Assembly: GCA_965215885.1 (NCBI GenBank)
Contig: CBDCEW010000040.1
Coordinates: forward strand, 1-26,939
Reading direction: 5' to 3'
Origin: Candidatus Moanibacter sp.
GTDB lineage: Bacteria; Verrucomicrobiota; Verrucomicrobiia; Opitutales; UBA2987
Length of the DNA stretch: 26,939 nucleotides
Shown: positions 19,201 through 26,939 of the stretch, in pieces
How positions within the stretch are numbered: the first letter of the stretch is position 1
Layout: every line of letters starts with the position of its first letter
Made by a program: the position numbers

Positions 19201-22200
19201 AGTATCTTGGAGGCGAGCGACGTGACTTCCTTTAAACGAATGGTCCATATGTGATTCCGGTGAAAAAGCCGGCGTCTCGGTATTCGCGGACCACGTTCTT
19301 GCGAACGCGGCTACAAATATCAACGACTTATGGAATCGCGTGGCCGCGTTCGCAAGAACTTGGAGGATTTTGTTGCGGAATCATCGTCGTCAATCCCGCT
19401 GAGCGGGATCGCCGTTATCGGTTGATATCTCGATGAAGTTTACGATTAAGCTTACGACGAAGTTTGCAGGAGATTTTTACCAGGAGCTTCTCTCCCTGTG
19501 AGGGATGTTTGTGGTAAGCTTTGTCGCGTGCTTCGTCGATATTGTTCATCAACCTAAGGGACCCTTTGTCGTAAGCATCGTCGTAATCTTTGTCGACGTC
19601 ACCTCGGAGATCTCGATGAAGTTTACGATTAAGCTTACGACGAAGTTTGCAGGAGGTTTTCACCAGGAGCTTCTCTCCCTGTGAGGGATCTTTGTCGTAA
19701 GCTTCGTCGCGAGCTTTGTCGCCATTTTTTGTGGAAATCTCGATGAAGTTGACGATAAAGCTTACGACGAAGTTTGGAAGGAGCTTTTCTCCCCGTCAGG
19801 GAATCTTCATCGTAAACTTTGTCGCGAGCTTTGTCGGATTTGCTCCTCGACGAAGTTTTGGGAAAGACAATCGGTGCTATCATCAACTCAGATTTTTCCT
19901 TTCAGATAGGGAGCGGTGGGACTGTCAGGGCAATCGCACAATCCGCTCACCGGACCCTGGTAGAGGATCTCACCGCCGGCATCTCCTCCTTCCGGTCCGA
20001 TCTCGACAACATAATCTGCTTCCGCGATCAGATCGATGTGGTGTTCGATAACGATCACAGTGTGCCCCTGGTCGACAAGGCGATGGAGTAACTCTATGAG
20101 CTTTTCGCAGTCACTCAAATGGAGGCCGATGGTCGGTTCTTCCAGGATGTAGAGGCTTGTCGGGGTGATGGCGCGTGAGCGTTCGGTATAAGTCTGAAGG
20201 CCTTTCGCCAATTCGCTCACCAGTTTGAGGCGCTGCGCTTCCCCACCTGACAAGGTTGGACTGCTTTGGCCAAGAGTGAGGTATCCGAGGCCGGTTTCGA
20301 CCATGAGATCGAGCATCTCTTTGAGCCGGCTATGAAAGTCGAAGAATGAGGCCGCCTCTTCAAAAGACATCTCGAGGACTTCGGCGATGTTCTTCCCTTT
20401 CCAGCGAATCTCATTCAGCTCGTTTCCGTATCGTTTGCCGCCGCAATCCTCGCAGATAACGTAGGTGTCGGGCATAAAGCTCATTTCCAGCTTTATACGG
20501 CCCGCTCCTTTACATTTCTCACAGCGGCCGTTTTTCGTATTGAAAGAATAGGTGCTGGGTGAGTGACCAAGCATTCGCGCTTCCGGGAGAGATCCGAAAA
20601 ACCTGCGGATAATGTCAAAGGCGCCGATATAGGTGGCGGGGGTGGAGCGTGGCGTCTTACCTATCGGGCTTTGGTCGACTTCGATTACGTGTCGGAACCT
20701 GTCACCGTATAGAAGTCTCTTAAAGGCAGGCTTATTTCGCGATTCGGTCTCGATACCTCCACCCAATGTAAAAGTGCGCCCATTGAGGATCCGCTTTCCG
20801 TTTTTGGAAGAGTAAACAACGGCAGGTTTCAGGAGATCTCTGACCAGGGTCGACTTACCGGCTCCGGATATTCCGCAGATCATGGTGAGCCGGCCGAGGG
20901 GCAGAGCCAGGGTGCCGCCCTTGAGGTTTCTGAGCGCTACCTCCTCTGCAATCAGCCAATTGGCCTCGCCCTTGGAGGCGTGTCGGCCGTTGGGCGGCGG
21001 CAGGGTGCGATAGCTGCCCCGGAGAGGATGCGTTATGCCCTTTCTCAGGTATTGACCTGTCAGTGAAGTCTTATGCCTCTTGATTTTGGCAAGGGAACCA
21101 CTTGCCAGCATATCCCCACCGTGGATACCCGCCCCTGGACCGAGATCGATTATTCGGTCGGCAAAGCGCATAGTGTCCTCATCGTGTTCCACAATGAGCA
21201 GGGTGTTCCCCTTTGCACGCAGCCTTTGAAGCGATTTCAGGAGATTATTATTGTCTCTGGCATGTAGTCCAATGGAGGGTTCATCAAGGACATAGAGAAC
21301 GCCGCTCAGGTTGGAACCGAGTTGTGCCGCCAGACGAATGCGTTGTGCTTCGCCCCCCGAGAGCGTGGCGGTGGCTCGTTCCAGAGAGAGATACCCAAGT
21401 CCGACGGCTTCCATGAATTTCAAACGCTCCTCAATTTCGGGAACAACGTCTTTAACAATAGCTGTCCCCCTCTTGTCCAGTTTCAGATTTCGAAGAGACG
21501 CAACAAGCTTCCTGGGTGTAAGACTCAGGAGATCGGGCAGCGCCAGCTTTCTTCCATCTTTGAAATAGAGAAAGACCGAACCGCTATTCTCATTGAGGCG
21601 GGAGCCAGTGCAGCGCGGACAGATTGTGCCGGGCTCAAAATTGTCCACTTCATCGGGATAATCATCATTTTTGTGCATCCGTTTGAGAATTCGACCATAG
21701 CCGTGACAGGTTGGACACCAGCCTTTGGGAGAGTTCCAGGAGAAGTGTTTCGGATCCAGATCCGGATAAGATTCCCCAGTGACCGGGTCGGTTCTTTTGG
21801 TCGAGAGCCAGGCGGCTATTTCTCCTTTCGGATTGGCCAGAAAACAGGTGCCTCGGCCGAGCTTCAATGCCTTATTGAGAGTAGCTGTGGTGATTCGGTG
21901 CTTCTTTCCGTCTACGGTTTGGAATCCGTGGATGACTACCTCGATATCGTGCTCGCGGTAGCGGTCCAGTTTCCTGAAATCGGAGATTTCGACGAAGTGA
22001 CCGTCGATTCTAAGCGTGGAGAAATGATGGTCGGCGGCCCAGTCAGCCAGGGGCTGATAGTGGCCCTTGCGGCCGCGCACGAGAGGGGAACAGAGGAAGA
22101 GAGGAGAGGGAGCCTTCTTTGCAAGGCTGCCAATTACACGATTGAGGCGTTTAAGAAGAGCGGCAGGTTTCCTTGTGACGAGAGGCCGGCCGGTCTTCCG

Positions 22201-25200: not shown

Positions 25201-26939
25201 ATGGCAGAACCAGACTTTGAAGAAGTCACAGAGTTCGGTCATAGTACCGACGGTCGAACGCGAGGTCCTTACCGTGTTGCTCTGTCCGATGGCGATAGAG
25301 GGGCGGATGTTTTCGATGCTTTCCACGTCCGGACGATCGAGCATCTCCAGGAACTGGCGGGTGTAGGGGCTGAAAGTCTCTACGTAGCGGCGTTGGCCTT
25401 CGGCGTGGAGAGTCTCGAAGGCGAAAGAAGATTTACCAGAGCCGCTGAGGCCTGTGACGACAATCAATTTTCCGAGGGGCACATCGATGTCGAAGCCCTT
25501 TAGATTGTTTTGCCGCACACCCTTGAGACGGATGCAATCTCGAGACTGGTAACCGGGATTCTTCACCCCATCATTTCAAATGGCTTCTTAAGGGTCTTCA
25601 TCACTTCTCGAATTTTTGAAACAATGGGGTTCGGTAGAATCAACTTTGGCTGCGGGTGCAGAATTTGGCAATACCAGGGCGTTAATTTTCTATGGCGGAG
25701 TATGTTTTGGCGCTAAATTACTGGTTCCGCCATAGAGGGGCTGCGTATTTTTGAGTGGCAACAGGAACGAAAAGCTTCCGCTTTCCGCTACAATCCGGAT
25801 CGAAGGGTGTAGCGGAAAGCGGAAGCTTTTCGTCTTTCCGCTGCCACCCGCTGCACTCTCAATTAAATCCAGCCGGACTGCACGCTAGGAAACGCACCTA
25901 CTCAAAACTCGGTGCCTTCAGCGAAAAGCGGGCTTGTCAATCAAGCTTAGCGGAAGTAGATGAGCAATGTCAGAGGAGGGAATTAATGGTCCATGGGAAA
26001 GAGATTTCCGTGAGAGCGGAGGGGTTTTCGGATATCCGGAATCTCACCGAGCAGGTAGAGGAAGTCATCGGGGAATCCCGGGTCAGGAATGGGGTGGTTG
26101 GAATTTCCGTGATCGGATCGACCGCTTCCATAACTACTATCGAGTTTGAGCCCGCGCTGGTCGAAGACATGAAGGAGAAACTTGAAGAGATCGCCTCCCG
26201 CAAGATGAAGTCACGGCATTCGGAGACCTGGGGCGACGACAACGGATTCTCACACCTGCGGGCCTCCCTGATGGGACCCGGAATTTGCCTGCCGGTGCGG
26301 AACGGGAAGCTGCTCGTGGGGACCTGGCAGCAGGTGGTCCTCATCGACCACGACAATGCGCCGCGAGAGCGCAGAGTCTATATACAAGTAGTGGGGGAGT
26401 GAACCCCATCATTTCAAACGGCTTCTTAAGGGCGGAAGATAAATGGTTGATATTGAAAGAGTTATGATGAAGAATCGGAGAATCACTATCGCCACTACTT
26501 GTGAGGATAAGAAAATGCCCTTAAGAAGCCTAAATCCGATTCTGCTGTACAGCAGAACGAATAGCTGCGTTCCAGAGCGGAGACCGCTTGGTTACGTAGA
26601 AGAATACGCGCCCAAGGCGTTCTCCGGTCTGCGCCTTGCTCTTCATCACTTCTCGAATTCTTGAAACAATGGGGTGAAGCGATGGCGTGGCGCATAGATG
26701 AAGCGGTCGTCCGCGGTGAAATCGACAACCGGATAAAAGGCAGCGTGACGGGCAAGAATTATACCTGCGCTTTTATGCCGATGAGGAGTGGCGCAATCAG
26801 TGGGCGGAGGATTTTCCCAAGGACGTCATCCTTCCCCATGAGGACCCTCCTTATGAAAAAGACCATTTGTTGCCCCAGATTGAGGAGGAGTTGCCTCCGG
26901 AGGAGGAATCTGTCGACTGAGCGTTCGGAATTCGCGGAG

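Follow-up and report, generated by a model that had tools for sequence, protein, structure and literature searches.

The window, the whole 26,939-nucleotide stretch that was analyzed, comes from Candidatus Moanibacter sp. and carries a double-length uvrA open reading frame (19888..25566, (-)) that begins with GTG and encodes 1,892 amino acids with four ABC ATPase modules. In profile searches, the chain scored 1846.7 bits against NF001503 (cut-off 1147) and 1805.4 bits against TIGR00630 (cut-off 729.8), which places it above both curated cut-offs of the UvrA family; the single halves of relatives each exceeded the TIGR00630/NF001503 cut-off on their own. Because a single frame holds two UvrA units, the gene counts as a tandem-fused UvrA in the broad sense. 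A first-pass annotation had described a frame without internal stop, Walker A motifs at residues 39, 647, 1033, and 1565, LSGG signatures at 483, 836, 1402, and 1772, and CxxC pairs in both halves, and all were recovered, with eight CxxC in total. Its alignment of the halves was reproduced at 39% identity (residues 358-944 versus 1268-1889, E 7e-133) and at 31% for the N-terminal parts, as was UvrA_inter (PF17760) in both halves, in two stretches of which the best was 1153-1245.

At the DNA level, halves A and B resemble each other in only four stretches of 46-96 bases each. The linker between them (residues 956-1002; 22561..22701, (-)) was spanned by Logan contigs in three of four runs, namely, X1, possibly the source sample, and X2 and X3, from other studies; X6 showed a gap there, which is no evidence either way. 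The same double-length frame was found in 27 of 40 relatives, single-contig genomes among them. The assembly is a draft of 105 contigs with 5.5% contamination, and repeats lie on both flanks of the gene, as might suit the mis-joined tandem duplicate that the first-pass annotation had left standing, but the 31-39% identity of the halves with almost no DNA likeness, the bridged junction, the relatives, and a tree in which A and B are not sisters rule out a mis-join or recent tandem duplication, and we regard the chance of an assembly artefact as vanishingly small. The 1,892-codon frame is real, and its junction is not a mis-join.

Half A (residues 1-955; 22702..25566, (-)) is a UvrA unit with a UvrB-binding domain (UBD), an insertion domain, and two intact sets of ATPase motifs, and it can be aligned end to end with 2R6F. 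Residues 1-1050 were modeled with AF2 (mean pLDDT 85.3), and the best Foldseek match of the model was 3uwx_A (target TM 0.90). The UBD of this half (about residues 133-256; 24799..25170, (-)) has lost the RKG loop and keeps R184, D212-R213, and D226, the equivalents of R176, R206, and D219 of Geobacillus stearothermophilus, which we take to be UvrB-contact residues. Across 155 double-length rows, R184 was conserved in 149, R213 in 146, and D/E226 in 154. The insertion (DNA-clamp) domain (about residues 293-400; 24367..24690, (-)) matched PF17755 at 295-360 and contains a conserved WYG...YKMHVR stretch.

Half B (residues 1003-1892; 19891..22560, (-)) is a UvrA unit without an insertion domain; in the profile search, PF17755 gave no match in this half, the match at 295-360 being the only one in the chain. 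A short loop (residues 1288-1315; 21622..21705, (-)), with pLDDT under 50 at 1298-1309, stands in its place, so that the CxxC pairs are 32 residues apart in half B versus 121 in half A; over the 155 rows, the corresponding zinc-module gap was 22-51 versus 110-127 residues. The UBD fold of half B (about residues 1133-1257; 21796..22170, (-)) keeps the RGRKGH loop (22057-22077), RIDG, and KLDRY.EH, with K1167 and G1168 in 155 of 155 rows and R1166 in 151, and has lost the UvrB-contact residues: the R176 position is R in 17 of 155 rows, and the R206 position is R or K in a single one. The AF2 model of half B (mean pLDDT 85.7, pTM 0.81) found 3uwx_A and 3zqj_A as top Foldseek matches (query TM 0.75-0.78). 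It lay closer to the inward-UBD structure 3ZQJ (rmsd 6.5-7.4) than to 3UWX (12.8), the reverse of half A; this pose is the model's choice.

At the distal site of half B, the Walker B motif LYILEEP (20134..20154, (-)) replaces Asp with Glu and keeps the catalytic Glu, reading LEEP versus the normal LDEP. This E was present in 153 of 155 rows; the two exceptions, Gilvimarinus L043 and Ralstonia L121, have D. A dead fourth ATPase site is unsupported, as no variation was seen there in the P-loop Lys, the signature, the catalytic Glu, or the His. Each unit has two ABC modules, every one of them equipped with Walker A, signature, Walker B, and H-loop motifs, and neither unit has the cysteines of the first zinc module. 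The description of the chain as two complete UvrA copies therefore does not stand: half B lacks the insertion domain and UvrB-contact residues, its distal Walker B reads LEEP, and the zinc-module-1 cysteines are missing.

Comparison of sequences revealed a division of parts between the halves. The insertion domain and the UvrB/Mfd-binding face survive in half A, which has lost the RKG loop; half B retains that loop and a larger share of the signature-II basic residues for DNA binding and has lost the insertion domain and UvrB face. Common to both are the wedge aromatic residues, the four P-loops, signatures, catalytic Glu, and H-loops. The complementary conservation held across the 155 double-length rows, which were chosen by likeness to the 1,892-aa protein and are mostly from Opitutales, and likewise in split genes (13 of A, 16 of B) and in two proteobacterial rows. 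In a tree, A halves and B halves formed two mirror clades (SH-aLRT 100 each), both apart from the host's single-length uvrA, and by these sequence comparisons A and B appear to be an old duplicate pair. The earlier proposal of a fused, asymmetric UvrA with specialized halves is thus upheld as to the complementary parts, which are seen in 155 relatives and are kept together when split, but not as to a half B that is a complete UvrA.

Class I UvrA (G. stearothermophilus 2R6F/3UWX, Mycobacterium tuberculosis 3ZQJ/9GA3, and the C. thermocellum 9GXK series) shares with each half the UvrA fold, two ABC modules, zinc modules 2 and 3, the wedge, and the UBD fold. In contrast to a class I chain, which is single length and homodimeric with an insertion domain and UvrB-contact residues in every protomer, the 1,892-aa chain has two unequal units, no zinc module 1 cysteines, an insertion domain and contact residues in half A only, a D-to-E Walker B in half B, and no RKG loop in half A. 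None of 11 structure matches was a solved UvrA chain longer than 993 residues. Class II UvrA (D. radiodurans UvrA2, Ecm16, and DrrC) is likewise a second paralogue beside a class I gene and lacks the first zinc module; membership was rejected, since class II has no UvrB-binding domain and the chain here matches PF17760 twice, with the fold in both models.

A natural single-chain UvrA dimer had been put forward as new, provided that it was not yet catalogued. It is not new, as fusion as such is widespread, annotated, and reported. Goosen and Moolenaar reportedly listed duplicated, double-length UvrA classes (IV and V) in 2008. A curated double-length model of 1,809 positions, NF001885/PRK00635 (NCBIfam, "excinuclease ABC subunit A"), presumably the chlamydial type, matches the chain at 1098 bits versus a cut-off of 3054, and 0 of 121 genomes of the phylum exceeded that cut-off. 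Double-length proteins from Ralstonia, Burkholderia, Cupriavidus, Mycetohabitans, and Gilvimarinus, routinely annotated as uvrA in GenBank, were 43-45% identical over about 98% of the chain; Ralstonia L121 and Gilvimarinus L043 fall in the same A and B clades with the same sharing of parts, and the fourth Walker B of the proteobacterial forms is a normal DEP versus EEP here. P0124 (2,334 aa) differs from the double-length family here in having both insertion domains and sister halves. In Planctomycetes, a single gene is described as consisting of two uvrA copies and as being double the length of its E. coli counterpart, the same one-gene layout; neither asymmetry nor function is given in the accessible part of that source (PMC8567305), and in the genome here a single-length uvrA exists beside the fusion. 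The accessible parts of PMC9328131, its preprint, PMC10192343, and PMC518961 hold nothing on double-length forms. Our literature search turned up a single statement on fused uvrA, the planctomycete one; it found no functional study of double-length UvrA and no description of the A/B partition or of split A and B genes, which does not establish their absence from print. Of 131 genomes of the class, 15 carry A and B as separate, closed genes and keep both, as do five further genomes (G020 and G157-G160); this is what is added here. These split arrangements represent few events, because all those placed in the tree belong to one clade, apart from G020.

UvrB is contacted by one UvrA protomer through the UBD and by its partner through signature II (PMC12796330). 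Docking of the half A UBD onto the genome's own UvrB domain 2 was predicted with a score of 0.47 (best control, 0.00), at least 92% of contacts in agreement between runs, and a partner pLDDT of 84. This weakly suggests a dock on half A: of 157 solved pairs, 116 attained the mark for a pass, as did 2 of 215 mismatched ones, with 18 of the 157 and both mismatches at 0.60 or under, and the pass may be memory, as a like complex (3FPN) is already solved. We infer that A and B pair with each other within one chain, and we lean somewhat toward a single-chain pseudo-heterodimer with one UvrB dock as the best reading. The duplicate pair, mostly fused, would have shared out the jobs of the identical protomers of UvrA2. 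The chain would fold as a single A-B pseudo-dimer and scan DNA with ATP, the lone insertion domain of half A would clamp the lesion, and one UvrB would be loaded from one side, onto a dock made of the UBD of A and signature II of B. The output would feed ordinary UvrBC excision, alongside the host's single-length UvrA. Counting against this scheme, UvrB binding and insertion-domain clamping are mutually exclusive within one protomer in M. tuberculosis UvrA2UvrB1-DNA, where the first UvrB sits on the protomer with the disengaged insertion domain (PMC11985968); with clamp and dock both on half A, a different order of steps would be needed here.

As the first-pass annotation had stated, uvrB and uvrC are present (contigs C105 and C100). 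In addition, mfd was found on C28. The UvrA piece that the first-pass annotation placed on C48 is there too, but it represents the 5' portion of another uvrA, single-length and running off the contig end, and the double-length gene is not the host's only uvrA. Most hosts of the double-length form also keep a single-length UvrA, and all three UvrB-contact residues are intact in 19 of 19 Opitutales single-length rows. The chain could then be a specialized, partly NER-independent DNA-surveillance ATPase, either class II-like as Ecm16 or DrrC or working mainly in Mfd-coupled repair, with global NER left to the single-length protein. Ecm16 works without UvrB, UvrC, or UvrD (PMC9328131), Mfd uses a UvrB-like domain, and no conserved repair gene adjoins the fusion. 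We consider this unlikely, as both halves keep the UBD fold that class II lacks and half A keeps its contact residues, the wedge Tyr is missing from 19 of 19 Opitutales single-length rows yet present in A and B, and in G036, one draft genome 98% complete, the fused form is the only uvrA found, alongside uvrB and uvrC. Several streamlined genomes (G010, G014, G018, and four g36 genomes) have only a single-length uvrA, and the fusion is dispensable there. The profile match of the single-length uvrA skips the insertion domain in a named Akkermansia genome and in four genomes of genus g51, so that half A has the only one found there.

The linker bears on whether the halves pair within the chain at all. 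It is long here and predicted to be disordered (pLDDT under 50), and the split forms show that a covalent link is dispensable; A-A and B-B dimers, swapped dimers, or partnership of each half with single-length UvrA could follow. The distance from H-loop 2 to Walker A 3 ranged from 96 to 142 residues over 155 rows (137 here), however, and many relatives have linkers about 40 residues shorter; the complementary losses also suit an A-B pair, and no single-length partner was found in G036, which together make such arrangements rather improbable.

Slightly less probable again is a pseudo-dimer of opposite polarity, in which half B is a frozen support protomer, its insertion domain lost for good, binding the first UvrB through a remodeled surface while half A sits on the lesion. 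This agrees with the UvrA2UvrB1-DNA state (PMC11985968), and the UBD of B displays a surface that is strongly conserved in its own right. All three contact equivalents are nevertheless lost from that UBD while the genome's UvrB domain 2 keeps its partner residues, and the RKG loop it retains corresponds, by position count, to M. tuberculosis K160-D165, which contacts the opposite protomer (PMC3167621).

The pseudo-heterodimer with one dock on half A extends to a broader, more tentative proposal, which we hold plausible at somewhat below an even chance: an obligate heteromeric UvrA, built from A and B either as a fusion or as the products of two unlinked genes, in the class and in some Pseudomonadota. 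The symmetric UvrA2 would there have become fixed as a one-sided sensor with a single clamp, a single UvrB dock, and one distal ATPase site retuned; in Opitutales and Akkermansia, it would also have assumed the wedge- or clamp-dependent sensing of lesions from a single-length UvrA that has degenerated. If true, this would be a naturally occurring system limited to UvrA2UvrB1. The literature states as open whether the sensing complex contains one UvrB (UvrA2UvrB1) or two (UvrA2UvrB2) and how the asymmetry of the pre-incision complex arises from a symmetric sensor (PMC11985968, PMC7835731); a chain with one clamp and one likely dock offers a natural test of whether one UvrB suffices, its four ATPase sites could be mutated one by one, and the split genes offer a direct heterodimer test. 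No conserved operon was found around double-length uvrA at 44 loci (1.5 kb flanks for 24), where the commonest neighbors were a TetR-family gene (7 of 44) and a gene without annotation (6 of 44). Matches in the ESM Atlas were UvrA clusters only, three of ten rows being 1,795-1,904 aa long.

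The double-length uvrA occupies 19888-25566 on the minus strand of the window as a stop-free open reading frame of 1,892 residues, which the first-pass annotation had read as two complete UvrA copies fused in frame. The four Walker A motifs, four LSGG signatures and CxxC pairs it listed were recovered where claimed, the CxxC motifs numbering eight, together with four Walker B motifs and four H-loops. The similarity of half A (residues 1-955) to half B (1003-1892) was reproduced at 39% identity (358-944 versus 1268-1889, E 7e-133), with 31% over the other aligned part, and NCBIfam profiles assigned UvrA to the protein above both cut-offs. 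As reported earlier, uvrB and uvrC were present in the host genome, each on contigs other than the window's; mfd was found on another contig. The UvrA fragment noted on host contig C48 was also present, as a 618-codon frame; because this frame is cut by its contig end and its product is 67% identical to the single-length UvrA of a relative, it belongs to a separate second, single-length uvrA of the host.

An assembly artefact was rejected, as the halves share just four short DNA matches and contigs from several runs cross the linker (residues 956-1002). When Logan contigs of four sequencing runs were compared with the window, a single contig crossed the linker in three, namely X1 (19692-25624, possibly the source sample), X2 (20531-22850) and X3 (20787-24619); run X6 showed a gap there. 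Relatives with names are Opitutales and other Verrucomicrobiota, where the host probably belongs too. Among 40 relatives, 27 carried one frame of 1,807-1,975 codons spanning both halves, four were broken at contig ends, one was split into two genes, three had only single-length uvrA, and five small genomes gave no uvrA-grade match. With three runs bridged and the same frame in 27 relatives, the earlier caveat of a mis-joined tandem duplicate was not borne out. Double-length UvrA is real, old and widespread.

The two halves are unequal. The alignment comprised 155 double-length rows, made up of this protein, 34 loci and the top 120 among 8,000 proteins scored, a set skewed towards close kin by its choice among best-scoring proteins. 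The zinc-module gap spans 110-127 residues in half A, which carries the insertion domain, and 22-51 residues in half B, which lacks it; Pfam and two AlphaFold2 models concur that this domain is confined to half A. The fourth Walker B reads EEP rather than DEP in 153 of the 155 rows, with the catalytic Glu retained, and maps to the distal site when aligned to C. thermocellum UvrA. Half A keeps the residues matching R176, R206 and D219 of G. stearothermophilus, which reportedly contact UvrB (3FPN work), in 149, 146 and 154 of 155 rows; at these positions half B keeps 17 and 1 of 155 and is variable at the third. In single-length UvrAs of the complete type, none of the three varies across the 33 rows (6, 8 and 19) compared, and their presumed partner residues in UvrB domain 2 are kept in the host's UvrB domain 2. 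Thus, two UvrA units do lie in frame, but the second is not a complete copy, having neither insertion domain nor contact residues.

Conversely, the RKG loop is invariant in half B (K1167 and G1168, 155/155) and lost from half A. By alignment counting on 3ZQJ, with a 21-residue offset, it is the predicted counterpart of the M. tuberculosis K160-D165 loop, which meets the other protomer close to its C-terminal zinc finger (PMC3167621). At the four basic signature-II positions named in that paper, half B has R/K in 155, 152, 98 and 54 of 155 rows, and half A in 155, 69, 17 and 0. Wedge aromatic residues, as defined in PMC12796330, are retained by both halves in this alignment. Double-length UvrAs of Ralstonia (L121) and Gilvimarinus (L043) show the same partition of parts; their fourth Walker B is normal.

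We infer that double-length UvrA is a single-chain A-B pseudo-heterodimer. With UvrB-contact residues on A only, one UvrB could dock on the UvrB-binding domain of half A (UBD-A) and signature II of B, the mirror site being absent; the chain would clamp DNA via one insertion domain, be braced by the half B RKG loop, and load a single UvrB from one side. Replacement of Asp by Glu may retune the half B distal ATPase site, described for class I UvrA as the tight, fast one (PMC6486640). A docking prediction of UBD-A with host UvrB domain 2 scored 0.47 (best control, 0.00); 18 of 157 solved complexes reach this level, as do both mismatches that passed (2 of 215); runs shared at least 92% of contacts, with partner pLDDT of 84. 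This tentatively hints at such docking, and may reflect likeness only, a like complex being solved. In the M. tuberculosis UvrA2UvrB1-DNA complex (PMC11985968), the first UvrB sits on the protomer that has freed its insertion domain from DNA. This speaks against the simple picture drawn here, in which clamp and dock share half A. Either half A would open its clamp while UvrB loads, or UvrB loading would have the reverse polarity, a less likely alternative that matches the M. tuberculosis state. The linker is predicted to be disordered; many relatives have one shorter by about 40 residues.

Two rapid maximum-likelihood trees, built on 122 and 75 rows with SH-aLRT support only, placed A halves in one clade and B halves in another, each with SH-aLRT 100 and mirror branching, separate from single-length UvrAs, the host's own included. 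In a class sample of 131 genomes including the host, A- and B-specific markers matched 114 and 111, respectively. Among the 114, 91 matches lay in frames 1,750 codons or longer, 15 genomes were verified to carry A and B as separate genes, and the remaining 8 were assigned to neither arrangement. The other 17 gave no A match; three of these gave weak B matches, and the two checked were ordinary single-length genes. Other searches added five split genomes (G020, G157-G160). Split A genes carried the insertion domain and three contact residues (13/13), split B genes lacked the domain and had EEP (16/16), and pairs were adjacent in some genomes and on separate contigs in others. No genome with a verified A or B alone was found among those surveyed. 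Those split rows that were included in the tree form one clade plus G020, which points to few events, and fission would be the simpler reading because outer branches are fused. In G036 (98% complete, about 30 contigs), the fused gene was the only uvrA seen, alongside uvrB and uvrC. Several streamlined genomes among the 40 relatives and 131 class genomes show single-length uvrA only, which argues against a necessary role for the double-length protein. No conserved operon surrounded it among the loci compared.

The fusion had been proposed as new if uncatalogued; it is catalogued. NCBIfam NF001885 is a 1,809-position double-length model, which this protein matches far under cut-off, and 142 of 225 plasmid records at E 1e-150 span 80% or more of the query, mainly from Ralstonia and many annotated uvrA. 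Double-length UvrA classes were reportedly listed by Goosen and Moolenaar in 2008. Most of the best 150 50%-cluster representatives are double-length; among 56 parsed, some carry the insertion domain in each half, others miss it in the second half, a few miss it in the first half, and others again are short in both halves. Other layouts included first halves without the domain and chains of ~1,600 aa class II-like in both halves (P0154, P0155, P0176; P0231, P0235, P0236, P0248). A structure search turned up no solved double-length chain, and a literature search covering few subscription papers yielded neither a functional study nor any mention of the A/B partition or split genes. Double-length UvrA is a known kind, functionally unstudied, whose remaining value lies in its complementary anatomy, co-retained split genes and a handle on UvrA-UvrB stoichiometry.

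Single-length UvrAs of Opitutales lack the wedge Tyr in 19/19 rows (C48, L144:1328-3181; L142; L192-L208); it is present in 8/8 rows from other orders. Most of the Opitutales rows also miss the RKG loop, yet the UvrB-contact residues are kept; this pattern occurs also where the single-length gene is the only uvrA found. Genus g51 (L156:473-3178 and L157:622-3447, two rows that are also wedge-less and on a long branch) and a named Akkermansia genome (G255) have single-length UvrA without insertion domain.

Loci titled Polynucleobacter, Bifidobacterium and Akkermansia muciniphila (L032, L037, L052) group with other Verrucomicrobiota lineages and are probably mis-binned or mis-labelled MAGs. A Burkholderiales MAG (L050:3944-9804) has the double-length gene in two overlapping frames (676 and 1,322 codons) broken inside half A, and P0001, a 2,403-aa relative 69% identical across the C-terminal region, has an extra 500 residues. 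The mfd frame L123:343-4011 has about 33 residues tandemly doubled near its N-terminus, a repeat that is either genuine or an assembly error. In the window, profile matches place a gamma-glutamyltransferase gene in two pieces (18232-19323 and 15859-16320), separated by an ISAs1-type transposase that occupies two frames and by an ORF partly matching DruA (PF14236; 16445-17014). A cluster of direct and inverted interspersed repeats lies just downstream of uvrA (19390-19840), where as many as about 80 hits overlap at one position, from 34 contigs. Upstream, multi-copy repeats (25565-25630, 25770-25835, 26403-26675) comprise a unit of about 65 bases, found some 110 times in the genome, and terminal fragments of a 270-base element (about 20 hits). 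These fragments adjoin the GTG start, which just three open codons precede.
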